NCBI GenBank assembly: GCA_035492775.1
Contig: DATJIW010000090.1
Location: 6,737-70,736 of the forward strand
Length of the DNA stretch: 64,000 nt
Direction: 5' to 3'
Source: Vicinamibacterales bacterium
GTDB lineage: Bacteria; Acidobacteriota; Vicinamibacteria; Vicinamibacterales; 2-12-FULL-66-21
A program made the position numbers and the translations under genes. Shown here in pieces: positions 2 through 56,753 of the stretch. Numbering within the stretch: the stretch's first letter is position 1; every line of letters begins with the position of its first letter. The notes under the pieces were generated by a model. It was not told where the DNA came from and searched no databases. It saw only the letters and a program-made list of their open reading frames with translations.

Positions 2-1981
2 GCGCGCGATGCGTTCGACAAGGTCCGCGGCATGGTCACCGGACACCATACGCGTCCCAAAGGCGCGAGCACCATCACGCAGCAGCTGGCGCGCGGCCTC
101 TTCCCGCAGGAAGTGGGCTACGAGATCGGCGACGTGAGCCCGGAGCGGAAGGTGAAGGAAGCGCTCGTCGCCATCCAGATCGAGAAGCGCTACACGAAAC
201 ACGAGATCTTCGCGCTCTACGCCAACCAGATGTATCTCGGTGAAGGCGCATACGGGGTCGAGGCGGCGGCGCGCACCTATTTCGGCAAGTCGGCGAAGGA
301 CGTGAACCTGGACGAGGCCGCGATGATCGCCGGCCTGTTCCAGACATGGCGGAACGCGCCGACGGTCAACATGGAACGGGCAAAGGCGCGGCAGGCCTAC
401 GTGCTCCAGCAGATGGCGGACGACCGCTTCATCACGCAAAAGGAAGCCGACGCCGCCAAGGCGCGTCCCATCGTCCTCGCCGCCACCGCCAAACCAACCA
501 ACAGCATCGCGCCATACTTCCTGGAAGAGGTGCGGAAGGATCTCGAGTCGCGCTACGGCGCCAAATCCGTCTACGAGAACGGCTTGAGCGTGCAGACGTC
601 GCTCGACGTGAAACTGCAGGACGCCGCGAACCGCGCGTTGGACGAAGGCGTGCGGCGGATCGATCATCTGCATGGCTTCCGGAAGCCGCAGCGGAACGTC
701 ATCGCCGAGCACCACACGGTCGAGAATTTCAAGCACCCCCGGTGGGAGCATGCGTTCGAGATCAACGACATCGTCCCCGCCGTCGTGACGTCCGCCGATG
801 CGGCGAACATCCACCTTCGGGCGGGGGCGTACCGCGTCACGATCGACAAGAAAGGCTATGCGTGGACGCACAAGACGCCCGCACAGCTCGTCAAGGAGGG
901 CGACCTCGTCGACGCGAAACTCCTGACGCTCGACACGGCCGAGCACACCGCGACCGCGGCGCTCGATCAGCCGCCGCTCGTGGAGGGCGCCGTGCTTGCC
1001 GTCGACAATCACACAGGACAGATCAGGGCCATGATCGGCGGGTGGAACTTCGAGCGAAGCAAGTTCAACCGCTCGACCCAGGCGTTCCGGCAGGTCGGCT
1101 CGGCGTTCAAGCCGTTCGTGTACACGACGGCCATCGATCGAGGCTACACGCCGACGTCGATAATCGACGACGACCCGGTGAGCTTCCCGGCGGGACCCGG
1201 ACAGCCTCCGTACTCGCCGCAGAACTACGAGAAGGACTTCTGGGGACCGATTACGCTGCGTCGCGCGCTCGAGCACTCGCGCAACGTGCCGGCCGTGCGG
1301 CTGATGGACGCGCTCGGCCCCAAACAGGTCATCGCCTACGCGCGGCGCTTCGGTTTGTCGGCTCCGCTCCCGCCCTATCTCTCGGTGGCGATCGGATCCG
1401 CGGAGGAGACGCTCATCGAGATGACGAGCGCGTACTCGACGTTTCCGAACCAGGGCGTCCGGATGACGCCGTATTCGATCCTGAAGGTCACCGATCGGCA
1501 AGGGAACGTGCTGGAGGAAAACCGCCCGGAGCCGAAAGATGCGATTCGCGCGGACACCGCGTTCGTGATGGTGAACCTCCTGCGCGGCGTGGTCCAGCGC
1601 GGGACCGCCGCGCAGGCCGGATCGATTAACTGGCCGATCGCGGGCAAGACCGGCACGACCGACGACTACACGGATGCGTGGTTCATCGGGTTCGATCCGG
1701 ACATCACCGTAGGCGTCTGGGTGGGCTACGACCAGAAGAAAACGCTCGGCCGCGGGATGGAAGGATCGAGAGCGGCGCTCCCGATCTGGATCGACATCAT
1801 GAAGGCATACATCGATCACCGCACCGATGTGCCAAAATTCGAGCCGCCCAGCAACATCGTCTTCGTGTCGGTGGACAGGGATTCCGGCGCAGCGGTGGAC
1901 GCAGGCGCGCCAGGGTCGATCAGCGAGGCCTTCATCGCCGGCACACAGCCCGGGTCATTTGGGAGCATTAATCGTCATTGA
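2..1981 (+). CDS. mrcA: Class A penicillin-binding protein (PBP1A family; GT51 glycosyltransferase + transpeptidase), 5' end outside window
   Basis: Frame open from base 2. GT51 motifs GASTITQQLAR and EKRYTKHEIFALYANQMYLG. Transpeptidase SxxK (SAFK), SxN (HSRN) and KTG (AGKTGTT). Confidence 0.9.
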   Translation, partial: ARDAFDKVRGMVTGHHTRPKGASTITQQLARGLFPQEVGYEIGDVSPERKVKEALVAIQIEKRYTKHEIFALYANQMYLGEGAYGVEAAARTYFGKSAKDVNLDEAAMIAGLFQTWRNAPTVNMERAKARQAYVLQQMADDRFITQKEADAAKARPIVLAATAKPTNSIAPYFLEEVRKDLESRYGAKSVYENGLSVQTSLDVKLQDAANRALDEGVRRIDHLHGFRKPQRNVIAEHHTVENFKHPRWEHAFEINDIVPAVVTSADAANIHLRAGAYRVTIDKKGYAWTHKTPAQLVKEGDLVDAKLLTLDTAEHTATAALDQPPLVEGAVLAVDNHTGQIRAMIGGWNFERSKFNRSTQAFRQVGSAFKPFVYTTAIDRGYTPTSIIDDDPVSFPAGPGQPPYSPQNYEKDFWGPITLRRALEHSRNVPAVRLMDALGPKQVIAYARRFGLSAPLPPYLSVAIGSAEETLIEMTSAYSTFPNQGVRMTPYSILKVTDRQGNVLEENRPEPKDAIRADTAFVMVNLLRGVVQRGTAAQAGSINWPIAGKTGTTDDYTDAWFIGFDPDITVGVWVGYDQKKTLGRGMEGSRAALPIWIDIMKAYIDHRTDVPKFEPPSNIVFVSVDRDSGAAVDAGAPGSISEAFIAGTQPGSFGSINRH

Positions 1982-2215
1982 CGATTGGCGACTGAAGATT
2001 GGCGATTTTTAATTGGCGATTGGCGATTGGCGATTGGGAATCGACCATTGACGATTGGCGACTGAAGATTGGCGATTTTCAATTAGCGATTGGCAATTGG
2101 GAATCGACCATTGGCGATTGGCGACTGAAGATTGGCGATTTTCAATAAGCGATTGGCGATTGGCAGTGACAATTGGCGAATTCGATGATTGGCGAATCGA
2201 CGATTGGCGAGTGGT
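1976..2215. repeat. Tandem array of degenerate GATTGGC heptamers organised in three higher-order units (starts 1976, 2046, 2109)
   Basis: Direct reading: cattgacgattggcgactgaagattggcgatttt(t/c)aatt(g/a)gcgattggc...attgggaatcgac recurs at 70- and 63-nt spacing. The array starts on the PBP1A stop codon (TGA 1979-1981). Confidence 0.9.
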
Positions 2216-2391
2216 AAGGGACTGCCCCTGGGTTAACCCAGGTTGGTGAGTGTCAACCGCGGTTGTCGTTTATGCTCTCCGCCGGCGGGCCGACGATTGG
2301 CGGATTGGCGAGTGGTGAACCGCCTCCACCTGGGTTGACCGAAGTTGACGAGTGCAACCGCGGTTGTCGTTTATCCTCTCCGCCGGCGGGC
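2198..2391. repeat. Tandem duplication (93 nt + 101 nt) containing the 3' end of the four-helix-bundle ORF
   Basis: Cores 2248-2290 and 2350-2391 differ by one indel and one substitution (gagtg(t)caaccgcggttgtcgtttat(g/c)ctctccgccggcgggc). Both copies start cgacgattgg. Confidence 0.85.
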
Positions 2392-2784
2392 CGTGTTGAT
2401 CTGTTTGGCGAGATCCAGCCGCTGCGCCTGTCGTTCCTGGGCGGTTTTTCGCGACTTCACGAAGATCCGGGTTAGTTCGTCCGCCTCCTGGATGAGGTCC
2501 TGCGCCGAGTCGCGGGAGACCAGATTCGATCGAACCAGGAGTTCCAGCCACCCTTTCGATTCATCCGCCTCTTCGACGGCCACTCCGATTTTTGCGATGA
2601 ATTCCGCAGAACTTCGCGCGCGGCACGTCGCGCGGTAGTTGCTGTCCGTTGCGCCCGCGGCGTCCAGGAGCTGTTCGGCGACCTTCTGGGCTGCCAGAGT
2701 TCGAGGCAGGCTCTCACAGAACTTGATGACATCAGCGGCGAACTTCTGCGTCCGCTCCTGGAGTGCAACAGCCTTGGCATTCAT
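2371..2784 (-). CDS. Four-helix-bundle protein (23S rRNA intervening-sequence protein family, TIGR02436-like)
   Basis: 137-aa all-helical ORF from ATG 2784 (MNAKAVALQERTQKFAADVIKFCESLP...SNYRATCRARSSAEFIAKIGVAVEEADESKGWLELL). Codons upstream of 2784 in the listed ORF are repeat-encoded. Confidence 0.75.
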   Translation of the reverse strand: MNAKAVALQERTQKFAADVIKFCESLPRTLAAQKVAEQLLDAAGATDSNYRATCRARSSAEFIAKIGVAVEEADESKGWLELLVRSNLVSRDSAQDLIQEADELTRIFVKSRKTAQERQAQRLDLAKQINTARRRRG

Positions 2785-2810
2785 GACGACCGGCTTTGCA
2801 TCTGCCGCGC

Positions 2811-2936
2811 CAATCGTCAATCGCCAATGCCAATCGTCAATCGTCAATCGTCAATGCCAATCAGCAATCGTCAATGAGTAATCGCCAATCGCCAATCGTC
2901 AATCCCTAATCGGCAATCGCCAATCGCCAATCGTCA
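2811..2936. repeat. Tandem array of about 18 CAATCGY heptamers (reverse complement of the GATTGGC word)
   Basis: Direct reading: caatcgt caatcgc caatgc caatcgt ... caatccc taatcgg caatcgc caatcgc caatcgt. The array abuts the prfB stop codon (TAA, 2937-2939). Confidence 0.9.
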
Positions 2937-4077
2937 TTAGTCGATTTCCTCCTCCGTCGCCGCCGAGAGCGCCCCGGCGGCCTTCTTCATCAGGTACGTC
3001 TTGATGAAGAAATCGATGTCGCCGTCGAGTACGCGGTTGACGTCGCCCACCTGCTCCTTGGTCCGATGGTCCTTCACCATCTGGTACGGGTGCAGAACGT
3101 AGCTGCGGATCTGGCTGCCGAACGCGATGTCGCGCTTTTCCCCGCCGAGCTTTTCGAGCGTCGCCTGCTGCTCCTTCGTCCTCAGGTCGTACAGCCGCGC
3201 CTTCAGCACCTTCATCGCCTGCGCCCGGTTCTTGTGCTGCGACCGCTCGTTCTGGCACGAGACAACGATTCCGGTCGGCAGATGCGTGATGCGGACCGCC
3301 GAGTCCGTGACGTTCACGTGCTGGCCGCCGGCGCCGCTCGACCGGTAGGTGTCGATCCGCAGGTCCTTTTCCTCGATCGCCACATCGACGTCGTCGGGCA
3401 GTTCGGGCCAGACGTAGACCGACGCGAATGACGTGTGCCGCCGTGCGGCCTGGTCGAACGGCGAGATTCGCACCAGCCGGTGGACGCCGGCTTCGGCGAG
3501 CAGTAACCCGTATGCGTAGTCGCCGTAGACGGTAAAGGTCGCGCTCTTGATGCCCGCTTCGTCGCCCGGCTGCACTTCGATGACGTCCCGCTTGAAGCCG
3601 CGGCGTTCGGTCCATCGAAGGTACATGCGCAGCAGCATCTCGGCCCAGTCCTGCGACTCGGTGCCTCCGGCGCCCGGGTGAATCGTCACGATGGCGTTCT
3701 TGCGATCGTGCTCGCCGCCGAGCATTTTCTTCGTCTCGCCGGCGTCCACCTCGCGCGCGAGATCGGCAAGGCCGGCCGCGAGATCGTCGCCGACGGGCTC
3801 GCCGGCTTCCGCCCACTCCGTCAGAACGGCCAGGTCGTCGACGCGCCGTTTCAGCGATTCGCTCAACGCGCGGTCGTCTTCGAGCCGCCGCCGGCGCTGC
3901 AGCAGCTTCTGCGCCGCCGCCTGATCCTTCCAGAAGTCGGGTTCGCCTACACGCTCCTCGATCTTCCTCAGCTCGTCGGCCGGGCGTGTGGCGTCAAAGA
4001 TAGCTCCGCAGATCGGACGCGCGCTTTGCCAGGTCCTGATACTGCCGGAGCTGCTCCTCGAGATGCTGAACAGTCAT
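2937..4077 (-). CDS. prfB: Peptide chain release factor 2, expressed through a programmed +1 frameshift
   Basis: SPF-type body with GGQ motif (SGAGGQHVNVTDSAVRITH). A 27-codon leader from ATG 4077 ends at an in-frame TGA. A +1 shift reads on into ...LDATRPADELRKIEERVGEPDFWKDQ... and joins the listed ORF 2937..3866. Confidence 0.9.
3993..4007 (-). promoter_or_regulatory. prfB: RF2 autoregulatory +1 frameshift site (GGAG C TAT CTT TGA C)
   Basis: Minus-strand sequence tgcGGAGcTATCTTTGAC. CTT TGA C is the canonical RF2 shift heptamer, with an upstream SD-like GGAG. Confidence 0.85.
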
Positions 4078-16202: not shown

Positions 16203-16236
16203 CGCTGGTTCGAGACCTGGAATTGCTGGACGATTT

Positions 16237-16325
16237 CAATCTTCAATGCGCAATCTTCAATGCGCAATCTTCAATCGGCAATCTTCAATCCCTAATCTTC
16301 AATCGGCAGTCTTCAATCGCCAATG
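16237..16325. repeat. Tandem array with 14-nt period (CAATCTTCAATSSS, about 6 copies)
   Basis: caatcttcaatgcg x2, caatcttcaatcgg, caatcttcaatccc, taatcttcaatcgg, cagtcttcaatcgc. The array spans the coaX stop codon (16299-16301). Confidence 0.9.
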
Positions 16326-17117
16326 TTCGGTTCTTTGCCAGATCAACCGGAGCCCGTCGAGCGTGAGATTCTCGTCCACGCGCTCGATGGCGCGGCTTTC
16401 GCCGGAGAGCACATCTGCGAGTCCTCCGGTGCCGATGACGAGCGCGCGGTCGCCTCCGTCCAGTTCCGCACGGATGCGGCGTACCAGTCCATCGACGAGG
16501 TCAACGTAGCCGAAGAACAAACCCGCCTGCATCGCGGCCACGGTGTTCTGCCCGATCACGCCGGCCGGCTTCCGCACGTCCACGCGGGGAAGCCGCGCGG
16601 CGCGCTGAAAGAGCGCCTCCGCCGAGATGTTGATGCCCGGACAGATGACCCCTCCGATGTACTCGCCCGCCGACGACACCACGTCGAACGTCGTGCCGGT
16701 GCCGAAGTCGACGATGATGAGCGGGACCGCGGATTGACGGCCGTATTTCTCCCACGCCCCGGCCGCGTTCACGATCCGGTCGGCGCCCACGTCCGTGATC
16801 GGGTTGTAGCGGACGGGCATGCCGGCGTTCGTCGCATCGACGACGAACGCGGCGTGATGGAAGTAGCGCTGGCACATCTCCTCAATCGGCCGTGTCAGCG
16901 GCGGCACCACCGACGCGACGGCGATGCCGGCGAGTTCGGGAATCGGCACGTGCGCGGTCTCGAAGAGGCGCGTCACGAAAATGCCCAGCTCGTCCGCCGT
17001 GCGTTCGCGCAGGGCTGCCAGCCTCCAGCTGTGCGCGAGCCGGTCGCCTTCGAAGACGCCGATGGTGACGTTCGTGTTGCCGACGTCGAGCGCCAGCAGC
17101 CGCGGAGCTACTTCCAT
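16299..17117 (-). CDS. coaX: Type III pantothenate kinase
   Basis: MEVAPRLLALDVGNTNVTIGVF N-terminus at ATG 17117, plus DFGTGTTFD and GGLA motifs. The listed ORF's upstream extension overlaps birA. Confidence 0.85.
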   Translation of the reverse strand: MEVAPRLLALDVGNTNVTIGVFEGDRLAHSWRLAALRERTADELGIFVTRLFETAHVPIPELAGIAVASVVPPLTRPIEEMCQRYFHHAAFVVDATNAGMPVRYNPITDVGADRIVNAAGAWEKYGRQSAVPLIIVDFGTGTTFDVVSSAGEYIGGVICPGINISAEALFQRAARLPRVDVRKPAGVIGQNTVAAMQAGLFFGYVDLVDGLVRRIRAELDGGDRALVIGTGGLADVLSGESRAIERVDENLTLDGLRLIWQRTEHWRLKTAD

Positions 17118-17911
17118 CGCACCTCTCCTGCGACAATCCGTTCGACTCCCTGGTCCGTGGATACGCGCAACGCTCCGTCGGCGTCGAGGCCCGCGCTCAG
17201 GCCGGTCCGCACCTGGTCCGGGCCGTCCCACTCGACCGCCGCCCCGTGTGCGGCCGGCGACAGCGCGAGCCACGATTCGAGCAGCCTCGCCGGCCCGTTC
17301 GCCGCGACGTCGGCCGTGACGCGGTGAAGGGCAGCAAGAACTGCGGCGAGGACGGCGCCGCCGTCGACTTCGCGGCCGAGTTCCCCTTCGAGCGATCCAG
17401 CGCGTCCCTCCAGTTCGGGGGGAAACGCCGATCGGCGAAGGTTGATCCCGAATCCAAGCACGATGTAATGAATCGAGGCGGCACCGCTCGACGCCTCTGC
17501 GAGAATGCCGGCGAGTTTACGGCGCGAGCGAAACGCCTGTCCTGTGACGGCGACCACGTCGTTCGGCCATTTGAGCTGCACGGGCAGTCCCGTCGACTCG
17601 CGGATGCCGTGCGCGACCGCCACGCCCCCTGCGAGCGTGATCCACCGCGCGAGCGCCGGACGGCGGAGGATGGTCGAGACATAGAGTCCCGACTCTGGCG
17701 GTGAGTGCCACGATCGTCCGAGACGTCCGCGGCCGGCGGTCTGCGCACCCGCGATGAATACGCAGCCTTCGTCGGCGCCCCGGTCCGCCGCGCGCAACGC
17801 GACGTCGTTCGTCGATCCGATTTCGTCGAAGTATTCCCACGACCTACCGAACACGCCGCGCTGCTCCGCGTTGGCAGACAAGGCGCGGCTGATTTCGGAG
17901 CGGAGCGTCAA
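17108..17911 (-). CDS. birA: Biotin--[acetyl-CoA-carboxylase] ligase
   Basis: GRGRLGRSWHSP biotin-binding motif and KWPNDV motif. TTG start overlaps the nadC stop. Confidence 0.85.
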   Translation of the reverse strand: MTLRSEISRALSANAEQRGVFGRSWEYFDEIGSTNDVALRAADRGADEGCVFIAGAQTAGRGRLGRSWHSPPESGLYVSTILRRPALARWITLAGGVAVAHGIRESTGLPVQLKWPNDVVAVTGQAFRSRRKLAGILAEASSGAASIHYIVLGFGINLRRSAFPPELEGRAGSLEGELGREVDGGAVLAAVLAALHRVTADVAANGPARLLESWLALSPAAHGAAVEWDGPDQVRTGLSAGLDADGALRVSTDQGVERIVAGEVRWK

Positions 17912-18762: not shown

Positions 18763-21329
18763 GCGCCGCGCTCCTGAGGCGACGAATCCGGTGCAGCGAA
18801 CCGGACATCGACGCTGAACGTGTCCGATGTCTCGATCGAGAGCTCCCGGACGAGGGCCACGGCGCACAAGTCTGCGCGGGCGGAATCGAGCAGCGGGCGG
18901 TCGCGTTCGGTGAGGCGCAGCACCGCCAGTTCGACCGGCGTTTTCATCGGCCGCTGCTCCTCTGATTTTTTCTTCCGGATCTCACCGAGCACGTTTGCTG
19001 CGAGTTCGAGCGTCCGCACGTCGTCTTCACGCTCGCCGCCTGCGGCCTCGAACAATTCATCGAAAGAAGGCCAGGCTGCGGTGTGAATGGAGCCTGGACG
19101 CCACCAGGACCAGACCTCTTCCGTCACGAATGGAAGAAACGGCGCGAACAGCCGGAGCAGCGACGACAGCGCGGTGAGAAGTGCCGCGTTCGCAGAACCG
19201 GCGCCCGCCGGACCCTGGTCGCCGTAGCGGCGCGATTTCACGAGCTCCAGATAGTTATCGCAGAAGAACCAGAACAGCGACTCCGCCCGTTCCAGCACGC
19301 GCGAGTAGTTGTAGTCCTCCAGATCCGCCGTCGCGTCGCGCACCAGGCGCCCGAGCAGCGTGAGCAGGCCGCGATCGATCGGTTCCACGATTTCGCCCCG
19401 AGGTTCCGGGCTGGCGAGCACGAACTTCGATGCGTTCAGCAGCTTGATCGCGAGCCGTCGGCCGACCTTCATCTGGCCAACGTCGAACGCCGTGTCGGCG
19501 CCGGGCCGGCCGCTCGCCGCCCAGTAGCGCACACCGTCCGACCCGTGCTCCTCGAGGAGCGCCATCGGCGTGACGACGTTGCCCTTGGACTTCGACATCT
19601 TCTTGCGGTCGGGATCGAGAATCCAGCCCGAGATCGCCGCGTGCTTCCACGGCAGCGTGTCGAATTCCAGATGCGAGCGCAGCACCGTGGAAAACAGCCA
19701 CGTGCGGATGATGTCGTGCGCCTGCGGACGGACGTCCATCGGAAAGACGCGGGCGAACAGGTCCTCGTCCGCGATCCAGCCTCCAGCGATCTGCGGGGAA
19801 AGCGACGACGTGGCCCAGGTGTCCATGACGTCAGGATCCCCACTGAAACCGCCGGGCTGGTCGCGCTGCTCCGCGCGGTACCCCTCCGGCACATCGGTCG
19901 ATGGATCGACGGGGAGACGCTCCTCCGGCGGAACGATCGGATGCGCGTAATCCCGGCTGCCATCCGGCAGTACGGGGTACCACAGCGGGAAGGGGACGCC
20001 GAAGAACCGCTGGCGGCTGATGCACCAGTCTCCGTTCAGACCGTTGATCCAGTTCTCCAGCCGCGCCTGCATGTAGGGGGGATGCCAGCAGAGTTCCTTC
20101 GCACGCGCCAGCAACGCATCGCGGAACGTCATGGTCTTGATGAACCACTGTCGGCTGGTCACGATTTCGAGCGGCCGGTCCCCTTTTTCGTAGAACTTGA
20201 CCGCATGCGTGATGGGGCGCGGGTCGCCTATCAGATCGCCGCTTTCGCGCAGCAGCTCGGCGATCTTCGATCTCGCCTTCGCCGCGGAGAGGTTCGCGAG
20301 CTGGTCGTACGCCTGCTGGGCGCGCGAGGGCTCGCGCGATTCCCAACCGTCATTTCCCCATTGCACGGGCCGCAGGGCGCCGTTCGCCTGGATGATCGCG
20401 CGCACCGGAAGCGACAGCGCCCGCCACCAGACCACGTCGGTGACGTCACCGAACGTGCAGATCATCGCGATCCCGGATCCTTTCTCGGGATCGGCCAGTT
20501 CGTGCGGCCTGATCGGCACGCGCACGCCGAAGAGCGGCGTGATGACATCGGTGCCGAAGAGCGGTTTGTACCGCTCGTCGTCTGGATGCGCCACGAGCGC
20601 GACGCACGCCGGGATCAACTCAGGGCGGGTGGTTTCAATCTCCACGGAACCCTGGTCGGCCCTCTGGAAGCGGATGCGATGATAGGCGCCAGGCTGCTCT
20701 CGATCCTCGAGCTCCGCCTGGGCCACGGCCGTGCGGAAGTCGACGTCCCACAGGGTGGGGGCCTCGAGCTGATAAGCGAGGCCTTTGCTGAGCAGGCGCA
20801 GAAACGAGAGCTGCGACACCTTCTGCGCGTCACGGCCGATCGTCGCGTACGTCATGCCCCAGTCGACCGACAGGCCGAGATATTTCCACAGCGCTTCGAA
20901 TGCCTTTTCGTCCTCGGCGGTGAGCCGCGCGCACAACTCGATGAAGTTCGGACGCGACACCGAGAGGGGATGCTTCTCCGGTTTCGCCGGCGGCTGGAAG
21001 TCCGGGACGTACGCCAGAGACGGATCACACCGGACGCCGTAGTAGTTCTGCACGCGCCGCTCCGTCGGCAGCCCGTTGTCGTCCCATCCCATCGGATAAA
21101 ACACTGCCTTGCCGCGCATCCGCTGAAAGCGCGCGATGACGTCCGTGTGCGTGTACGAGAAGACGTGGCCGACGTGCAGCGATCCGCTGACAGTCGGCGG
21201 CGGCGTGTCGATCGAATAGACTCCTTCGCGCGGACGCGACCGATCGAACCTGTAAACGCCGTCAGCGGCCCATCGCTCCATCCATTTTTTTTCGAGTCCT
21301 TCGAGGGCAGGCTTTTCTGGAACAGTCAA
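18759..21329 (-). CDS. valS: Valine--tRNA ligase
   Basis: HIGH-type motif [19 protein letters not shown] and KMSKS. Proposed TTG start at 21329 ([20 protein letters not shown]). Farther-upstream codons of the listed ORF are repeat-encoded ([11 protein letters not shown]). Confidence 0.9.
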
Positions 21330-21333
21330 AGAG

Positions 21334-21429
21334 AACTCCCAACTCCCAATTCCCAACTCCCAATTCCCAACTCCCAAACCCCAACTCCCCAATTCCCAAC
21401 TCGCACTTCCCAGTTGCCGATTGGGAGTT
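21334..21429. repeat. Tandem array of AACTCCC/AATTCCC heptamers ending in one inverted unit (GATTGGGAGTT)
   Basis: Direct reading. 21334-21361 is the 28-mer AACTCCCAACTCCCAATTCCCAACTCCC, also found at 54404-54431 and inverted at 53772-53799. Confidence 0.95.
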
Positions 21430-21430
21430 A

Positions 21431-22360
21431 TCAACCTCTTTTAAGTCGTTCGATTTCTTCACGCACGAGACGTTCGGCGGCTTCGAGGACTACGCCGCGC
21501 AGGGTCGAGTCCTGGAGCCGGGCAAGAACGCGATCGGCAATCGCGTCGATCAGGGCCTCGGGATCGGGGGGCGCGGGTCCCGTCCGCTCTCCGGCCGGCG
21601 CCGAGTGGGCGACCCGGCCCTCGGCGGTCAGCAGCGCCGCAAAGGCGTCGGCCAGCGACGGCGGTATTGCTCCGGCCGACGCAGGTGCCGCGGCGCGGTC
21701 AGCCGGTGGTGGCATCGCGTCAGGTTCCGCCGTGCGGGGCGCCGCCGCACGCGCCGTGACGGCGGCGTCGAGCCGGTCGAAGTACGCCTCGAGCGGATCG
21801 TCGGATCGGGCGCGGCCTGGCTGGTCCGGCGGAGCGGGCGGCGGCTCCTGGATCGGTTCGTATCGCGCGAGCTCGGCCCCCGGTGCCACGCCAGCGTGAT
21901 TCGCCGGCGGCGGCTCCCGCCGTACCGGCGGGACGGGCGGCCGCACGGGTCCCTGAGCCGTCGGCCCGGCGGCCCACAGGTCGGCGGGGCGATTGCCCAG
22001 CAGCAGATCCTTGACGCGATTGATGACCAGCTGCGGCTCGAACGGCTTCACGAGCACGCCGTCGCAGCCCGCGGCACGCGCGCGCGATTCGTCGATCGGC
22101 TCGAAGGCGCCGGTGAGCAGAAGCACCGGCACGTGCGACAGCTGCGGATGCGATTTGACGAACGCGGCGACTTCGTAGCCGTCGCGTTCGGGCATGCCGA
22201 CGTCCGCCAGCACGATGTCCGGACGCACACGCTCGGCCTGCTCGATCGCGGCCTGGCCGTTGCCGACGGTGATGACCTCTATGTTCTCGTCGGCGAACGT
22301 CAGCTCGATGACGCGCTGGATCGTGATGCTGTCGTCGGCAAGCAGCAGCTTGTGGGGCAT
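21431..22360 (-). CDS. Response regulator (CheY-like receiver domain with Pro/Ala-rich C-terminal extension)
   Basis: [17 protein letters not shown]...[17 protein letters not shown]...LLTGAFEP...VLVKPF receiver signature. No DNA-binding output domain recognised. Confidence 0.8.
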
Positions 22361-36698: not shown

Positions 36699-36925
36699 TG
36701 GTGCGCCGTGCTCCGTGCTCCGTGCTCTGTGCTAGTGCGCCGTGCTCGGTGCCAGTGCTCCGGTGCCAGTGCTCCGTGCTCGTGCACCGGGACTCAGCAC
36801 TCCGGACGGAGCACCGAGCACCAAGCACCGAGCACCCGGATCGGGCACCCCGGACGGAGCACCGAGCACCAAGCACCCGGATTGGCACCCCGGACGGAGC
36901 ACCGAGCACCGCGCACCGAGCACCG
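36699..36925. repeat. Large imperfect palindrome built from heptamers: (GTGCTCN)n left arm, (GAGCACC)n right arm with about 47-nt higher-order repeats
   Basis: Left arm 36699-36788 gtgctcc gtgctcc gtgctct.... Right arm 36802-36925 has ccggacggagcaccgagcaccaagcacc...cggat(c/t)gg(g)cacc repeated 2.7 times. Confidence 0.9.
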
Positions 36926-52311: not shown

Positions 52312-52914
52312 ATGACCTTCACCGGGCTCATCGGGCGGATCTGCATGTTTCCGCTGCGCGCGATCATCAATGCGTGCGTCGCGCTCCGGATCCACCCGAA
52401 CATTCTTACCTTCGTCGGCGTGCTCATCAACGTGGCGGCGGCCGCCGAACTCGCGTCGGGCCATTTCGTGGTCGCGGGGATCATCATGGTGGTCGCCAAC
52501 ATCTTCGACTTCATCGACGGCAAGGTCGCAGTCGAGCTCTCCGCCGTCAGCAAGTTCGGGGGGTTCTGGGATTCGGTCATCGACCGCTTCTCGGACATCG
52601 CGCTCTTCATCGGCCTCATTTATTTGTACTCGCACATGGGCCGTACCGATTACGTGATGGTCGCGTCGCTCGCGATGATGTTCGCGATCATGACCAGTTA
52701 TACCCGCGCACGCGCGGAGTCGCTCATCGCAAAGTGCAAGGTCGGTTTCATGGAGCGCCCCGAGCGGATCGTGCTCTTCATGATCGGCGCGTTCACGAAC
52801 CGGATGGCGGGCGTGCTGTGGGTGATTCTGGTGCTGTCGATTTTCACCGTCGCCGACCGCGTGATCCACACCTACCGCGAGCTGCGGCACGACAGCCGCG
52901 AGGCGCTCGCATGA
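52312..52914 (+). CDS. CDP-alcohol phosphatidyltransferase family protein
   Basis: DFIDGKVAVELSAVSKFGGFWDSVIDRFSD fits the D-x2-DG-x..G-x3-D-x3-D signature. Polytopic membrane protein. Confidence 0.8.
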   Translation: MTFTGLIGRICMFPLRAIINACVALRIHPNILTFVGVLINVAAAAELASGHFVVAGIIMVVANIFDFIDGKVAVELSAVSKFGGFWDSVIDRFSDIALFIGLIYLYSHMGRTDYVMVASLAMMFAIMTSYTRARAESLIAKCKVGFMERPERIVLFMIGAFTNRMAGVLWVILVLSIFTVADRVIHTYRELRHDSREALA

Positions 52915-53108
52915 AGAACCCGGCCGCTCTGCCCGCCCGGATTCTGTGGAACGCATTCTTCTGGACCTACGAGCGCGCGAGCTGGCAGTACGACGTGATG
53001 GTCATCGCCATCCTGGCGTTCGTCTGGCTCGTACCGCCGGACTGGCTCAAGGATCCGACGGCGCACGGCACCGGGCCCATTGGCTGGATCCTGGAGCGGA
53101 TGCGATGA
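52911..53108 (+). CDS. Small hypothetical membrane protein (65 aa)
   Basis: ATG 52911 overlaps the upstream stop (ATGA). One TM helix (YDVMVIAILAFVWLV). Reading frame taken from the tail of listed ORF 52011..53108. Confidence 0.4.
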   Translation: MKNPAALPARILWNAFFWTYERASWQYDVMVIAILAFVWLVPPDWLKDPTAHGTGPIGWILERMR

Positions 53109-53111
53109 CGC

Positions 53112-53678
53112 TCACACATCGTCGCGTTCGTCGTGCGCTCCGAGGTCGAGCGTCTTGCCGGTGAAATGAATGTCGTGCGCGGCGATCTTGTCGCGCAACA
53201 CGCGTCGGGCCTCGCCATAGAGGCGATGTGGAACGGTCAGCCGGCGCGCGAAATTCTTCCAGCGATACATCAACACGAGCGTGACGGGCGGTCCCTCGCG
53301 CCACGTCAGGCCCCCGATGCGTGAATACGGCAGGAACCCACCGTCCGTCCACACGCCGTCCTCGTAGAATCCGCGCCTGATCTCCAGGCTCATCGGCATC
53401 GCATACACGTAATACACGAGCATCATCGTTTCGCCGAATACCTGCGTGGGATAGACACGCAGCACGGCAAGCTTGTAGACGATGAGGATGCCGAGCAGGG
53501 CTCCGACGCCGAGGAACAGCCGGTAGAACGGAGGACGCACGGCGGGCCATGTCAGCAGCGACGTGCGACGGAGGCGCCGATAGCGGATGACCTGCGCGAA
53601 GAGGCGGACGTTCAGGACGAGAAACCCGGCACCGAGGAAGATCAGCAGCCGCGGCAGCAGCCTGTCATCGATGACCAC
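53112..53678 (-). CDS. Hypothetical membrane protein (three N-terminal TM helices plus soluble C-terminal domain)
   Basis: 188-aa ORF with hydrophobic segments LLIFLGAGFLVLNV, FYRLFLGVGALLGILIVY and MMLVYYVYAMPM. No family recognised. Confidence 0.55.
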   Translation of the reverse strand: MVIDDRLLPRLLIFLGAGFLVLNVRLFAQVIRYRRLRRTSLLTWPAVRPPFYRLFLGVGALLGILIVYKLAVLRVYPTQVFGETMMLVYYVYAMPMSLEIRRGFYEDGVWTDGGFLPYSRIGGLTWREGPPVTLVLMYRWKNFARRLTVPHRLYGEARRVLRDKIAAHDIHFTGKTLDLGAHDERDDV

Positions 53679-53698
53679 GGGCGCCTGTCGAGAACCGG

Positions 53699-53799
53699 AA
53701 GTTGGACCTGGATTGGGAGTTTGGGAGTTGGGATCGGGGGTTAGACCTGAACTGCGCGTTGGACCTGAATTGGGAGTTGGGAATTGGGAGTTGGGAGTT
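53699..53799. repeat. TTGGGAG-word array with internal 21-nt duplication; last 28 nt are the exact inverse of 54404-54431
   Basis: gttggacctg(g/a)attgggagtt occurs at 53701 and 53758. 53772-53799 is GGGAGTTGGGAATTGGGAGTTGGGAGTT. Confidence 0.95.
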
Positions 53800-53814
53800 A
53801 ATCACCACGATACC

Positions 53815-54384
53815 CTACTGCCCGAGCCGTGGATCGAAGCAATGCCGGCATCTCGCTTCGTAAGTGCCCTGCGCCCCGACGAGCACCCGCTCGCTGCTCG
53901 CGACGAGCCGCTGCGTGTGGTTGGCGGGCGCACCGCAGACCATGCAGATCGCCAGCGTCTTCGAGATGTATTCAGCGATCGCGAGCAGCTGCGGCATCGG
54001 CTCGAACGGCTTGCCCAGATAGTCCTGATCGAGCCCGGCGACGATGACGCGTTTGCCCTGATCGGCGAGCGTCGTGCACACGGCGGGCAGCTCGACATCG
54101 AAGAACTGCCCCTCGTCGATCCCGACGACGTCGGTCTCCGGGCGCACTTTCTCCAGCAGCTCGCGCGAGCTCGACACGTTCTCGGCTTCGATCCGCATGG
54201 CGCTGTGCGAGGTGACGTGGTCCTCGCCGTAACGGTCGTCGATCCGCGGCTTGAAGATCTGGACTCGCTGGCGGGCAATCTGGGCGCGGCGGAGACGGCG
54301 GATCAACTCCTCACTCTTGCCGCTGAACATGCTGCCGGCGATGACTTCAATCCAGCCGCCGGTGGGCCTGTGGGTGATCTCCAT
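53815..54384 (-). CDS. tdk: Thymidine kinase
   Basis: ATG 54384 gives [30 protein letters not shown] (P-loop). C-terminal zinc motif CMVCG...CRHC. Upstream listed codons are repeat-encoded. Confidence 0.9.
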
Positions 54385-54400
54385 ATGTGGACGGGCAATG

Positions 54401-54497
54401 CTCAACTCCCAACTCCCAATTCCCAACTCCCGATTGTTCAGGGCCGACGCCGAATTCGAGGTCGAATTGGGAATTGGGAGTTGGGAATTGGGAGTTG
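54401..54497. repeat. Inverted word arrays (CTCCCAA arm, 44-nt spacer, TTGGGAG arm) able to form a 22-bp perfect stem
   Basis: 54410-54431 (caactcccaattcccaactccc) is the exact reverse complement of 54476-54497 (gggagttgggaattgggagttg). Confidence 0.95.
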
Positions 54498-54516
54498 AAA
54501 AAATGCCCGCAAAGAT

Positions 54517-55080
54517 TCAAATCTTCCGAAGATACTCTCCCGTTTCGGTATTCACGCGCACCGCGTCGCCGATGTTGATGAACGGCGGCACTTGCACGAC
54601 GAGACCGGTCTCGAGCGTGGCTGGCTTGACCTGGGCGCTCGCCGTCGCACCCTTGATGCCGGGTACCGTCTCGACGACTTTCAGATCGACGGCCTGCGGC
54701 AGTTCGATGCCGACCGGCTCGGCGCCGTAGAACTCGACGGTGATGGTCGCGTCGGGCACGAGGTAGTTCGCGGCGTCGCCGAGCACTTCCGCGTCGATGT
54801 GCAGCTGCTCGTACGTCGACGTGTCCATGAAGTGATACGAGTCGCCGTCCTTGTACAGGTACTGCATCTCGCGCTCGTCGAGGACGGCGCGTTCGAGAGA
54901 GTCTTCCGACCGCAGCTTCTGGTCCGAGAGCGAGCCGTTCCGGATGTTCCGGAACTTGGCACGCACGAATCCACGCAGGTTGCCGGGGGTGACGTGCTGC
55001 AGGTCGAGAACCCGGTAGAGGTCGTTCTCGAGCTTGACGAGCATGCCCTTCTTCAGTCGTGTCGCTTGAATCGAAGCCAT
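54517..55080 (-). CDS. efp: Elongation factor P
   Basis: MASIQATRLKKGMLVKLENDLYRVLDLQHVTPGNLRGFVRAKFRNI is the EF-P N-terminal KOW-like domain. 187 aa. Confidence 0.9.
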   Translation of the reverse strand: MASIQATRLKKGMLVKLENDLYRVLDLQHVTPGNLRGFVRAKFRNIRNGSLSDQKLRSEDSLERAVLDEREMQYLYKDGDSYHFMDTSTYEQLHIDAEVLGDAANYLVPDATITVEFYGAEPVGIELPQAVDLKVVETVPGIKGATASAQVKPATLETGLVVQVPPFINIGDAVRVNTETGEYLRKI

Positions 55081-55168
55081 GATCCCTGCCGCGCACCGGT
55101 CGTGCGCCCAAACCTCACGATGTTAGCATGCCTCGCCCGGCCGCGGCTCGTAGTGCTACGATCGACGC

Positions 55169-55561
55169 ATGCCGTGCGACCCCTTGCGGGACCTGCGGGC
55201 GTGGCAGGACCGGATGGAGCGGCTCGCGGCCCAGCACGGGTCGGCCGCGTGGGCCCCTCCCACAGACGTTTACGAAACCCACGACCGCTACGTCGTGACG
55301 GTCGAACTTCCCGGGCTCAAACGCGAAGAGGTCGATCTGTCGGTCGAGAACGGCCGTCTGACCCTGCGGGGCGCGCGGCACGAGGCCGTTGATTCGCGCC
55401 GGTATCATCAGGTCGAGCGCGGCCACGGACAGTTCCACCGTACGTTCGAGTTCGGTGACACGATTTCGGCCGACACCGTCAACGCGGATCTGCGCGATGG
55501 CGTGCTCACGATTACGCTGCCGAAGATCGCGCCCGCCGTCCGCAGGATCGAAGTCAAGTAA
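55169..55561 (+). CDS. Hsp20/alpha-crystallin family small heat-shock protein
   Basis: WAPPTDVYETHDRYVVTVELPGLKREEVDLSVENGRLTLRG...GVLTITLPK alpha-crystallin domain. Confidence 0.85.
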   Translation: MPCDPLRDLRAWQDRMERLAAQHGSAAWAPPTDVYETHDRYVVTVELPGLKREEVDLSVENGRLTLRGARHEAVDSRRYHQVERGHGQFHRTFEFGDTISADTVNADLRDGVLTITLPKIAPAVRRIEVK

Positions 55562-55574
55562 CGGGGATTCCGAC

Positions 55575-56753
55575 ATGATTCGACGTGCGCTGCTGGCATG
55601 CGTCTTCATCGCGTCCGGCTTCTTTGCCGGCATGGTCCTCACCGGCAAGATGCGCAGCGCGGATGAATCGATCGCCGCGCCAGCTCCCGTCCCCGCAACA
55701 GCCGTGCAGCCGTCGAGCGCGGCCGCGGGCACGATTGGCGGGCTCCCCGACCTGTCGGGGGTCGCCGCCAGGGCAATACCCAGCGTCATGAACATCTCGT
55801 CGCTGCGCGTCGAGCGGCAGTCCGCCTCGCCGTTCGCGGGCGATCCGCTCTTCCGGTACTTCTTCGGCGATCCGGACGAAATCCCCGGCTACAGCAACCG
55901 TATCAGCCAGAGCCTCGGGTCCGGCGTGATCGTGTCGAGCGACGGCTACGTCCTGACGAACAATCACGTCGTTGGCGACGCGAGCGCGCAGGTGTCGATC
56001 GTCCTTCCCGACAAGCGCGAGCTGAAGGCCAAGGTCGTCGGCGTCGATCCGATGACGGACATCGCGCTGTTGAAGATCGACGCGCGCGGGCTGCCCGTGC
56101 TGGCATGGGGAGACTCTTCGAGGCTGAAAGTCGCGGAGTGGGTACTCGCCATCGGCAATCCTTTCCAGCTCAATCAGACGGTCACGCTCGGGATCGTCAG
56201 CGCAACCGGACGGACGCTCGAGGGGCGCCTCGCGACGTACGAAGACTTCATCCAGACTGACGCGGCGATCAATCCCGGCAACTCGGGTGGTGCGCTCGTG
56301 AACGCGCGCGGGGAACTGGTCGGGATCAATACGGCCATCTTCAGCGAGACCGGCGGGTATCAGGGAATCGGGTTCGCCGTGCCGAGCAATCTCGCGAAGC
56401 ACGTGATGGACGACCTCATTCGCTTCGGCGAAGTCCAGCGCGGGTCGATTCCGGGCATCCAGCTGATGGCGCTCACCACACAGGATGCCGAGTATCTCGG
56501 CGCCCCGAACACACGCGGCGCGCTCGTCGCGCAGATGGCCCGCCGCTCCGATGCCTGGGACGCCGGCCTCCGCCCCGGCGACATCGTCGTTTCCTTCAAT
56601 GGCCACCAGATCGACGACGTCTCGCAGCTCCAGCGCATGATCGCGGATGCCAAGGTCGGCACGACCGCGCGCGTCGAAGTGCTTCGACAGAGCCGCCACA
56701 TGATGGTGGATGTGCCCATCACTCGGCCGACGCCCCAGCGCCGCAACCGGTAG
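55575..56753 (+). CDS. Do/HtrA family serine endopeptidase with one PDZ domain
   Basis: ATG 55575 gives an MIRRALLACVFIASGFFAGMVL anchor. Triad contexts TNNHVV, DIALLKI and GNSGGALVN. C-terminal PDZ. Confidence 0.85.
   Translation: MIRRALLACVFIASGFFAGMVLTGKMRSADESIAAPAPVPATAVQPSSAAAGTIGGLPDLSGVAARAIPSVMNISSLRVERQSASPFAGDPLFRYFFGDPDEIPGYSNRISQSLGSGVIVSSDGYVLTNNHVVGDASAQVSIVLPDKRELKAKVVGVDPMTDIALLKIDARGLPVLAWGDSSRLKVAEWVLAIGNPFQLNQTVTLGIVSATGRTLEGRLATYEDFIQTDAAINPGNSGGALVNARGELVGINTAIFSETGGYQGIGFAVPSNLAKHVMDDLIRFGEVQRGSIPGIQLMALTTQDAEYLGAPNTRGALVAQMARRSDAWDAGLRPGDIVVSFNGHQIDDVSQLQRMIADAKVGTTARVEVLRQSRHMMVDVPITRPTPQRRNR

Follow-up and report, generated by a model that had tools for sequence, protein, structure and literature searches.

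Inverted repeats around tdk in a Vicinamibacterales bacterium are heptamer arrays, probably part of a lineage-wide population of intergenic repeats

Organization of the efp–tdk locus

[quoted passage not shown] It is preceded by efp (elongation factor P; 54517–55080, minus strand), the upstream gene of a co-directional cluster, and followed by a predicted membrane ORF of 188 aa (53112–53678, minus strand), which is syntenic in relatives and has no family match. The genes near tdk are HSP20, a protease, efp, tdk, a CDP-alcohol phosphatidyltransferase, and uvrC. Gene calls are from a caller that assigns 87% of the window as coding; it replaced a strict first caller, which assigned 55%.

The tdk gene is framed by two 28-mers, at 53772–53799 (plus strand) and 54404–54431, which, as originally predicted, are exact reverse complements of each other, and the identical 28-mer is also present at 21334–21361 (minus strand). 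The number of such matches expected by chance is zero (100 shuffles). The predicted spacing is likewise confirmed: the downstream copy lies 15 nt past the tdk stop codon (53815–53817), 19 nt separate the upstream copy from the tdk ATG (54384), and 4 nt separate the copy at 21334 from the TTG start of valS (21329). A further 22-nt copy at 54476–54497 is present and belongs to a fourth four-unit array, at 54469–54496.

The 28-mers are exact to the base as repeats but are not long unique sequences. Each is composed of four head-to-tail units of GGGA(G/A)TT, i.e., GGGAGTT or GGGAATT, and is a (GGGARTT)4 tandem heptamer array. TRF reports a period of 7 with 4.1–4.9 copies and 88–91% matches at 53770–53799, 54403–54431, and 54464–54497, and a 14-mer of the array unit gives 15 overlapping matches.

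The 132-nt efp–tdk spacer (54385–54516, minus strand) holds two of these arrays. Array C1 (54464–54497, plus strand) consists of four GGGAATT/GGGAGTT units and a partial unit, G-rich on the plus strand; in the sense of the efp–tdk mRNA it is a C-rich arm (AACTCCC/AATTCCC) that starts 20 nt past the efp stop codon. Array G (54403–54435, minus strand), with the units GGGAGTT, GGGAATT, GGGAGTT, and GGGAGTT, is G-rich in the mRNA sense and contains the upstream 28-mer. In the next spacer, array C2 (53767–53799, plus strand) contains the downstream 28-mer, is C-rich in the mRNA sense, and complements array G perfectly over 30 nt, while array C3 (53708–53735, plus strand) is a degenerate second copy of the C2 unit. 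Together, C2 and C3 form a 57-nt tandem duplication that comprises the array plus AATYCAGGTCCAAC. The arrays occupy the spacers of an otherwise tightly packed efp–tdk–membrane cluster. Their presence in five independent soil assemblies that encode an identical Tdk shows them to be genuine rather than products of misassembly. The unit order GAGG is common to three arrays in the window, each time starting from the array boundary, and is otherwise found at one of 200 other loci.

Heptamer arrays elsewhere in the window

The valS leader harbors a longer array of 9–10 GGGARTT-type units in the mRNA sense (21334–21412, minus strand; TRF: 9.7 copies at period 7 over 21334–21402). Its last GGGAG is located 6 nt before the TTG start, a Shine-Dalgarno-like spacing, and is probably the valS ribosome-binding site. 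A short complementary arm at 21420–21429 (plus strand; AACTCCCAAT in the mRNA sense), directly past the stop codon of a response-regulator gene, pairs with part of this array.

Three further regions employ other units. A four-helix-bundle gene of family PF05635 (2374–2787, minus strand) has ATTGGCG-type arrays on one side (1977–2310, plus strand) and, on the other, CGCCAAT-type arrays in the inverted sense (2808–2933, plus strand). The parallel that had been drawn between tdk and this cassette (1979–2936) holds at the level of anatomy, and both cases are explained by heptamer arrays having colonised neighbouring spacers. When searched with tblastn against 1.24 Mb of fetched loci, the four-helix-bundle protein matches the window itself alone; in contigs that encode an identical protein, the gene is downstream of a release-factor gene every time, and the contigs end soon after. 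GTGCTCC arrays followed by GAGCACC arrays (36701–36925), beginning 21 nt past the rpsA stop codon, form a hairpin with arms of ~100 nt, for which folding of a 261-nt stretch gives −167 kcal/mol. Finally, an intergenic spacer at 16235–16328 (plus strand) is made up of alternating CAATCTT and CAATCGG heptamers with a super-period of 14 nt.

Period-7 arrays across the lineage

Seven regions of the window repeat at period 7 and none at periods 5, 6, 8, or 9. The preference extends to 374 kb of the lineage, where 41 arrays have a period of 7 and 10 a period of 8, with zero or one at each other period from 4 to 12. Some 30 distinct heptamer units are represented among the 41 arrays; the units are locus-specific, and most are devoid of G tracts (e.g., ATTGGCG, CAATCTT, AAGTTCG, and CAGGTTT). 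Nearly all 41 arrays are intergenic, overlapping called genes marginally or not at all, and the apparent overlap with valS and tdk results from over-extended start codons in the gene calls. An inverted partner is found no more than 200 nt away for 25 of the 41. Hairpins are the norm for the heptamer arrays of this lineage, the usual form being an array, a short loop, and an inverted array; the efp–tdk spacer has this form (C1, loop, G), and the next spacer has two direct C-type copies (C2 and C3).

The GGGARTT unit itself was detected in a genome scan in cyanobacteria, mainly filamentous ones, and in Acidobacteriota. Perfect runs at other acidobacterial loci comprise 3, 4, or 6 units in a sample preselected for at least three. 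In soil metagenome X1, the contig depth at arrays is ~170–270 times that of the flanks, which are heterogeneous. The order C-arm, loop, G-arm, gene, C-arm recurs at an unrelated gene of ~690 aa in the Vicinamibacterales genome L029.

Same-unit arrays in adjacent spacers recur, namely at tdk, at the four-helix-bundle gene, and in L029, so the bracketing of genes might not be solely a by-product.

Variation among relatives and strains

The order and orientation of the efp–tdk–membrane cluster are kept in ~35 relatives, with or without arrays. The spacers are near-empty in L121, L128, and L133, and the same spacers contain unrelated heptamer units in L124, L125, L127, L132, L135, L137, L138, L144, L150, L153, L184, and L198. 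None of the examined relatives (65–91% Tdk identity) has same-unit arrays on both sides of tdk. The location of arrays right after stop codons was considered as a functional clue and rejected: the ancestral spacers are only ~0–10 nt long, so an array that fills such a spacer necessarily adjoins both stop and start codons.

Variation is also apparent between close strains. L201, which is 99.6–99.9% identical to the window and encodes an identical Tdk, has the C2/C3 duplication collapsed to one copy and carries a C>T change within the 28-mer. L204, also with an identical Tdk, has a remodelled C1 arm, yet its fold still reaches −70 kcal/mol. In the valS leader, the array numbers 9 units in the window and 6 in L209. 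The valS array and the 57-nt indel between direct sub-arrays are thus unit-number polymorphisms of the slippage type between close strains. On time scales from strains to species, arrays appear and disappear, change in length, and are remodelled.

Predicted RNA folding and possible pairing across tdk

C1 and G are predicted to pair with each other within the spacer RNA, giving a local hairpin of ~30 bp (−74.1 kcal/mol, z = −9.6). No intrinsic terminator (a GC-rich hairpin with a U tract) is apparent, with zero terminator-like sites in a scan of 52900–55900, and the hairpin is followed by GAGCAUUGCCC. A promoter and terminator scan of the locus found nothing, and Rfam 15 gave no match at the gathering threshold across the whole window. 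One RNA-derived contig from a relative, in a metatranscriptome that yielded only fragments of relatives, runs from efp into C1 and stops there; it is weak evidence of co-transcription, and DNA carry-over may account for it.

The original prediction also envisaged co-folding of the two UTRs of tdk. Such pairing is physically possible: as isolated duplexes, G with C2 gives a perfect 30 bp at −60.8 kcal/mol versus −55.0 kcal/mol for G with C1, and the minimum-energy fold of 838 nt uses the G–C2 duplex. On this basis, array G in the 5′ UTR could pair with C2 in the 3′ UTR and enclose tdk in a 30-bp stem, which might be cut by RNase III in the manner of rRNA and intervening-sequence processing stems or might toggle with the C1/G hairpin to control translation or stability of tdk. 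The three-arm layout repeated at a different gene in L029 and the inverted arrays that flank the four-helix-bundle gene are in line with such a function, PF05635 being named for proteins encoded in 23S rRNA intervening sequences. However, the duplex competes with the local hairpin (−74 kcal/mol), which is very stable and is transcribed earlier, and a stem spanning an ORF would be opened by translating ribosomes. Nor is the pairing conserved: it is missing from the relatives examined, several of which have almost no spacer, and the C2/C3 indel separates strains that are 99.6–99.9% identical. The C>T change in L201 places a mismatch within the duplex, although it would leave a G–U pair. A functional stem around tdk is therefore considered unlikely.

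Possible G-quadruplex formation

An equally doubtful explanation is that the four-unit arrays exist as G-quadruplex (G4) regulatory elements, in which (GGGNNNN)4, as DNA or RNA, would adopt a G4 structure and modulate transcription or translation of the adjacent gene. Tracts of at least three guanines occur as (GGGARTT)4 at three sites, three arrays at the locus number exactly four perfect G3 units, the fewest from which a G4 can form, and ViennaRNA folds the G arm on its own into a quadruplex when G4 energies are included. Analogous repeats of Xanthomonas and Nostoc have been shown to form G4 in vitro and to prefer four units (Rehm et al. 2015, PMC4692102). Against this, the complementary arm is only 32 nt away, and the hairpin at −74 kcal/mol far outcompetes the predicted G4 at −11.7 kcal/mol. 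The strand preference is also unlike the published one, with the C-rich strand coming after the stop codon in the present case. An explanation by G4 alone was set aside because most heptamer units of the lineage are without G tracts, leaving the phenomenon as a whole uncovered.

Possible pairing between messages

In a broader version of RNA pairing, the arrays may not be neutral but may constitute an evolvable system of RNA pairing, with same-unit arms in 5′ and 3′ UTRs pairing both in cis and in trans. In cis, the tdk G arm would toggle between C1 and C2, circularising the message or marking it for RNase III; in trans, pairing could involve the C-rich tdk 3′ UTR, which is a perfect 28–33-nt antisense to the valS ribosome-binding region. 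If true, expression of otherwise unrelated housekeeping genes would be linked, but this proposal is given little credence.

Proposed mobility and inversion

A composite or MITE-like unit, as had been suggested, would have the arrays as termini of an element that carries tdk; alternatively, each hairpin could be a small mobile palindrome akin to REP/RAYT or to cyanobacterial small dispersed repeats. The occurrence of both occupied and empty spacers among relatives, the identical 28-mer at three sites in 64 kb, and the very high copy number in soil metagenomes are compatible with mobility. In contrast, the syntenic position and orientation of tdk are constant in ~35 relatives, such that the arrays come and go while the gene does not, and the neighbouring genes include no transposase, RAYT, or integrase. 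Dozens of unrelated units speak against a single sequence-specific transposition system, and the variation is in whole units, as is typical of slippage. No target-site duplications or conserved termini are visible at the array boundaries in the window, the relatives, or the strain contigs. A mobile origin is thus very improbable.

The least credible of the proposals is an invertible segment, in which recombination between the perfect 28-bp inverted repeats, 604 bp apart, would turn tdk around and detach it from the efp promoter: repeats of 28 bp are about as short as RecA-dependent exchange allows, no invertase or site-specific recombinase is found among the neighbouring genes, and every contig that spans the segment shows a single orientation, which is shared by the window, five independent strain-level assemblies (L201–L205, with both repeats covered in three), as well as by every syntenic relative. 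Short-read contigs from soil metagenomes break at the arrays and could miss minority orientations; the putative joints derive from other loci.

Relation to known repeats

Heptameric repeats have precedents in several bacterial groups. The short tandemly repeated repetitive (STRR) heptamers of cyanobacteria were reportedly described by Mazel et al. in 1990. As in the lineage studied here, STRRs and the heptameric LSSRs of Mrazek consist of tandem 7-nt units with a strong excess of period 7, are intergenic, and comprise several unit families per genome (LSSR: PMC4679880).

The closest resemblance in sequence is to the repeats described by Rehm et al. (2015, PLoS One; PMC4692102) in Xanthomonas (GGGAATC) and Nostoc (GGGGAYT), which are also heptamers with G3 tracts; four-unit arrays are typical of them and occur three times at the tdk locus. 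They share with the present arrays an overwhelmingly intergenic location, mostly between co-oriented ORFs and near the stop codon of the upstream gene, as well as frequent inverted pairs and differences in length and sequence between close relatives (PMC4692102). Closely spaced inverted pairs able to form stem-loops number 70–75 in Xanthomonas, and, like the arrays here, neither the Xanthomonas nor the Nostoc repeats are tied to a functional gene class or to mobile elements (PMC4692102). The unit GGGAGTT/GGGAATT and its acidobacterial host are distinct; the unit is related in form to the consensus GGGAATC or GGGGA(C/T)T but does not match it (PMC4692102). In the published repeats, the G-rich sequence preferentially lies on the coding strand when it closely follows a stop codon and on the non-coding strand when it closely precedes an ORF (PMC4692102). 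The reverse is observed here, where the coding strand is C-rich past the efp and tdk stop codons and G-rich before tdk and valS. Further differences are that the G-rich unit is one of ~30 in the lineage, most of which are unable to form G4, and that inverted pairs predominate more strongly (25 of 41) than in Nostoc, in which few paired repeats were found (PMC4692102).

[quoted passage not shown] Those arrays are made up of a single unit, mostly in one orientation and without a complementary partner, whereas here the units are diverse and inverted pairs dominate.

The enterobacterial REP/BIME elements, abundant imperfect palindromes in or after operons whose RNA stem-loops affect mRNA 3′-end stability, are a functional analogy only. 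Within a genome, REPs follow one conserved consensus and owe their mobility to RAYT transposases, while the elements described here have no common consensus, possess arms of tandem heptamers, and are accompanied by no visible RAYT gene. No description of heptamer repeats in Acidobacteriota or Vicinamibacterales was found in the searched literature.

Probable origin and significance of the arrays

On the evidence assembled above, the four-unit GGGA(G/A)TT arrays that make up the 28-mers probably belong to a lineage-wide population of intergenic period-7 simple sequence repeats, of the kind represented by STRRs, LSSRs, and the G-rich repeats of Xanthomonas and Nostoc, rather than forming parts of a mobile or invertible cassette. 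The bracketing of tdk by inverted arrays is most likely a by-product. Because the efp–tdk spacer holds both orientations, a same-unit array in the spacer next door is automatically inverted relative to one of the arms, and tdk appears bracketed.

With regard to how this population arises, the arrays probably grow and shrink by replication slippage. Independent slippage alone does not predict the shared GAGG order, which calls for selection or some form of copying. Units may reach the opposing arm and adjacent spacers through template switching or gene conversion, which would account for the unit order being identical in the three copies in this genome. Within the polycistronic transcript, the first structure to fold would be the C1/G hairpin, which, by analogy with REPs, is probably a generic intercistronic stem-loop that shields efp mRNA at its 3′ end and gives tdk partial insulation. 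No tdk-specific function of the arrays is implied.

The findings have practical consequences, as heptamer arrays break short-read assemblies, yield spurious “perfect inverted repeats” around genes, and are run through by ORF calls, as at valS and tdk. They also extend heptameric intergenic repeats, with prior hosts in cyanobacteria, Xanthomonas, Beggiatoaceae, and a few Bacteroidetes, to the Vicinamibacterales of the Acidobacteriota, a major and mostly uncultured soil lineage. In the Vicinamibacterales, the repeats are mostly hairpin-forming inverted pairs, with dozens of unit sequences and turnover at the strain level. With its many units and the gains seen within a conserved operon, the lineage would be a good comparative system for the period-7 preference and for the role of the hairpins.

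Heptamer Arrays at the tdk Locus

The 28-nt sequence flanking tdk, GGGAGTTGGGAATTGGGAGTTGGGAGTT, lies at 53772-53799 on the forward strand and its reverse complement at 54404-54431 and 21334-21361, exactly as originally predicted; shuffled sequence would be expected to contain no match to it. The 28-mer belongs to a known class of repeats and consists of four tandem 7-nt units, GGGAGTT or GGGAATT (TRF; 14-mer scan), together written GGGARTT. Four arrays of this unit occur at the tdk locus, where efp (54517-55080) and tdk (53815-54384) are both on the minus strand (NCBIfam). In the efp-tdk mRNA sense, the C-rich array C1 (54497-54464) lies 20 nt past the efp stop and is separated by a 32-nt loop from the G-rich array G (54431-54404), 19 nt ahead of tdk. 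The C-rich array C2 (53799-53767) follows 15 nt past tdk, and 3′ of it lie the degenerate, C-rich array C3 (53735-53708) and then a 188-aa membrane ORF starting at 53678. The gaps of 15 and 19 nt at tdk and of 4 nt at valS are likewise confirmed. Between uvrC and the membrane ORF is a CDP-alcohol phosphatidyltransferase gene (52312-52914), for whose product the top models are archaetidylinositol and phosphatidylinositol phosphate synthase, with scores under their curated cut-offs.

Other Arrays of the Window

Arrays of period 7 occur in the window (66% GC), with nothing comparable at periods 5, 6, 8, or 9. Their units differ from locus to locus, the GGGARTT family occurring at valS and tdk. 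ATTGGCG arrays at 1977-2310 stand opposite CGCCAAT arrays at 2808-2933, with a four-helix-bundle gene between them (2374-2787, minus strand; TIGR02436/PF05635, the 23S rRNA intervening-sequence protein family). Higher-order repeats of 63 and about 101 nt are also present on its left side; in all contigs with the identical protein, the gene is downstream of a release-factor gene and the contig ends soon after it. An alternating CAATCTT/CAATCGG array with 14- and 28-nt super-periods (16235-16328) occupies the spacer preceding the ORF at 16323-17327 and has no obvious inverted partner. GTGCTCC and then GAGCACC arrays at 36701-36925, beginning 21 nt past the rpsA stop, pair as the two arms, each about 100 nt long, of a hairpin (the 261-nt stretch that was folded has -167 kcal/mol); the right arm also carries a 40-nt super-repeat.

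The valS gene (minus strand; NCBIfam) has a TTG start at 21329, and the final GGGAG of its leader array is located 6 nt ahead of this codon (21327-21340). On the basis of this spacing, the array probably supplies the valS ribosome-binding site. The leader has nine units in the window and six in L209, a strain-level contig spanning it; the four start-proximal units are the same, while the upstream units vary. Read in the G-rich sense, GGGARTT arrays are free of stop codons and include TTG, and mechanical ORF calls therefore run through them in frame, for tdk from a TTG at 54426 (region 54385-54426) and for valS from a TTG at 21434 (21330-21434). Such read-through ORFs could mislead automatic start-codon annotation.

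Arrays across the Lineage

The lineage sample comprised the window and 80 metagenome loci, selected solely for encoding a Tdk relative (65-91% identity), for a total of 374 kb. It contains 41 arrays of period 7, 10 of period 8, and none or one of any other period from 4 to 12; these counts are underestimates, as the 85% self-match threshold missed the degenerate array of L127, and the period-8 arrays may be true octamers or heptamer arrays with one-base insertions (e.g., GGGGAGTT, in the valS leader). The heptamer arrays represent about 30 different canonical units, and nearly all lie outside called genes. An inverted partner lies within 200 nt of 25 of the 41 arrays (at least 15 of 18 matches) and a direct partner near 11, so that array, loop, and inverted array is the usual form. 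Array sites are mostly flanked by co-directional genes (13), with five between convergent and two between divergent genes.

In several relatives, the efp-tdk-membrane ORF cluster is nearly devoid of spacers. In L121, tdk begins directly at the efp stop and overlaps the gene after it, and L128 and L133 have spacers of <10 nt. Other relatives fill the same spacers with arrays of unrelated units, mainly hairpins: ATTGTTG/CAATCAG (L125), AAATCCC/GGGATTT (L132), ATTTCAG type (L135), AAGTTCG/AACTTCG (L138), TCAGCCT/AGCTGAT (L153), and CAGGTTT/ACACCTG (L184). L130 and L137 have AACTCCC...GGGAGTT 3′ of tdk. The unit of the nearest relative, L127 (91% Tdk identity), is GCGGNNC; its degenerate array (GCGGGAC GCGGGGC GCGGTGC GCGGAAC GCGGTCA, 524-568) fills the tdk-membrane ORF spacer. 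Near-empty spacers and unrelated units at the same positions show independent, lineage-specific gains in an ancestrally compact gene cluster.

Why tdk Appears Bracketed

The efp-tdk spacer harbors both orientations of the unit; therefore, if the next spacer contains an array of that unit, this array is bound to be the inverted repeat of one of the two arms. The sole non-trivial point of the bracketing is that one unit fills two adjacent spacers. This recurs around the four-helix-bundle gene, to which the original prediction had drawn a parallel, at L150 as a direct pair, and at L029, from another Vicinamibacterales genome, where the order is C-arm, loop, G-arm, gene (about 690 aa), C-arm, as at tdk. 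L132, L137, L144, L175, and L184 have two array sites with differing units. The sharing of a unit by adjacent spacers despite the many in circulation suggests local copying, in which template switching or gene conversion would carry arrays across 1-2 kb. Such copying would also fit the unit order GAGG, which is identical at the boundary of three window arrays and found in one of 200 other loci.

The 132-nt efp-tdk spacer is predicted to form a roughly 30-bp hairpin (-74.1 kcal/mol; shuffles -37 ± 4, z = -9.6), far more stable than the G-quadruplex predicted for the G arm alone (-11.7 kcal/mol). Computed as separate duplexes, G x C1 comes to -55.0, G x C2 (a perfect 30-bp match) to -60.8, and G x C3 to -39.6 kcal/mol. 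The strength of G x C2 and its use in the minimum-energy fold of 838 nt make the originally proposed pairing of the tdk 5′ and 3′ UTRs thermodynamically possible, but conservation does not back it. In kinetic terms, this pairing would be disfavored: transcription would complete both C1 and G 600 nt ahead of C2, and a stem spanning the ORF would probably be opposed by ribosomes translating tdk. No Rfam family matches the window, and a scan of 52900-55900 found no sigma-70 promoter or intrinsic terminator motif at the tdk locus. The role of the efp-tdk hairpin, if any, is most likely that of a generic intercistronic stem-loop.

The suggestion that tdk is a mobile cassette is rejected: about 35 of the Tdk-relative loci share the order and orientation of efp, tdk, and the membrane ORF, tdk having neither moved nor flipped, while the arrays vary. 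Inversion of the tdk segment was not seen, every assembly spanning it, among five encoding an identical Tdk, having the window orientation.

These five strain-level assemblies (L201-L205) come from different soil samples. L201 is 99.6-99.9% identical to the window over 6.5 kb and lacks 57 nt, such that C2 and C3, each with AATYCAGGTCCAAC after it, are fused into a single array. The window, L202, and L203 carry the 57-nt tandem duplication (array plus AATYCAGGTCCAAC, window 53708-53799), and L201 a single copy (3570-3650). L201 also has C>T in the first unit, and its 28-mer complement is therefore imperfect. In L204, the C1 arm differs (AACTCCC AACTCCC AACGCCC AACTCCC), and the hairpin is still at -70 kcal/mol. 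The variation, that of the valS leader included, is of the kind shown by a slippage-prone simple-sequence repeat.

Relation to Known Heptamer Repeats

A search for (GGGARTT)3 in one genome per species yielded at least 120 loci. Among the matches listed, filamentous cyanobacteria are in the majority (e.g., Nostoc, Microcoleus, Symploca, Rivularia, and Calothrix), followed by about 15 Vicinamibacterales or other Acidobacteriota MAGs, a few Bacteroidota and Verrucomicrobiota, and one Xanthomonas. Cyanobacterial STRRs are heptamers. The closest nucleotide match to the window among the genome loci listed is a Vicinamibacterales MAG (82% identity). The tdk-array locus was found in soil metagenomes, in which arrays have about 170-270 times the depth of their flanks, the sequence past them is heterogeneous, and contigs end at them; thus, the GGGARTT unit occupies very many loci in soil communities.

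According to the summary of Mrazek (2007) in PMC4679880, no class of long simple-sequence repeat is more abundant in bacteria than heptamers. Rehm et al. (2015; PMC4692102) described two sets of repeats: GGGAATC in Xanthomonas, where 89-93% are intergenic and inverted pairs at close spacing number 70-75, and GGGGAYT in Nostoc. These repeats favor exactly four units. Most lie between aligned ORFs and near the gene upstream, and they are under-represented where ORFs diverge. They are mostly transcribed, vary in length among close relatives, and are tied to neither mobile elements nor gene classes; their function is unknown (PMC4692102). Heptamer arrays immediately 5′ of start codons, with proposed translational effects, have been reported by MacGregor (2015; PMC4679880) and in a Nostoc preprint (bioRxiv 10.1101/2022.06.06.494920). 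The present arrays resemble this class in each structural trait examined, save the exact unit and strand preference. No earlier account of heptamer repeats in Vicinamibacterales or Acidobacteriota was found in the literature searched. Why period 7 is favored and what such hairpins do are questions of the whole class and not of the tdk locus.
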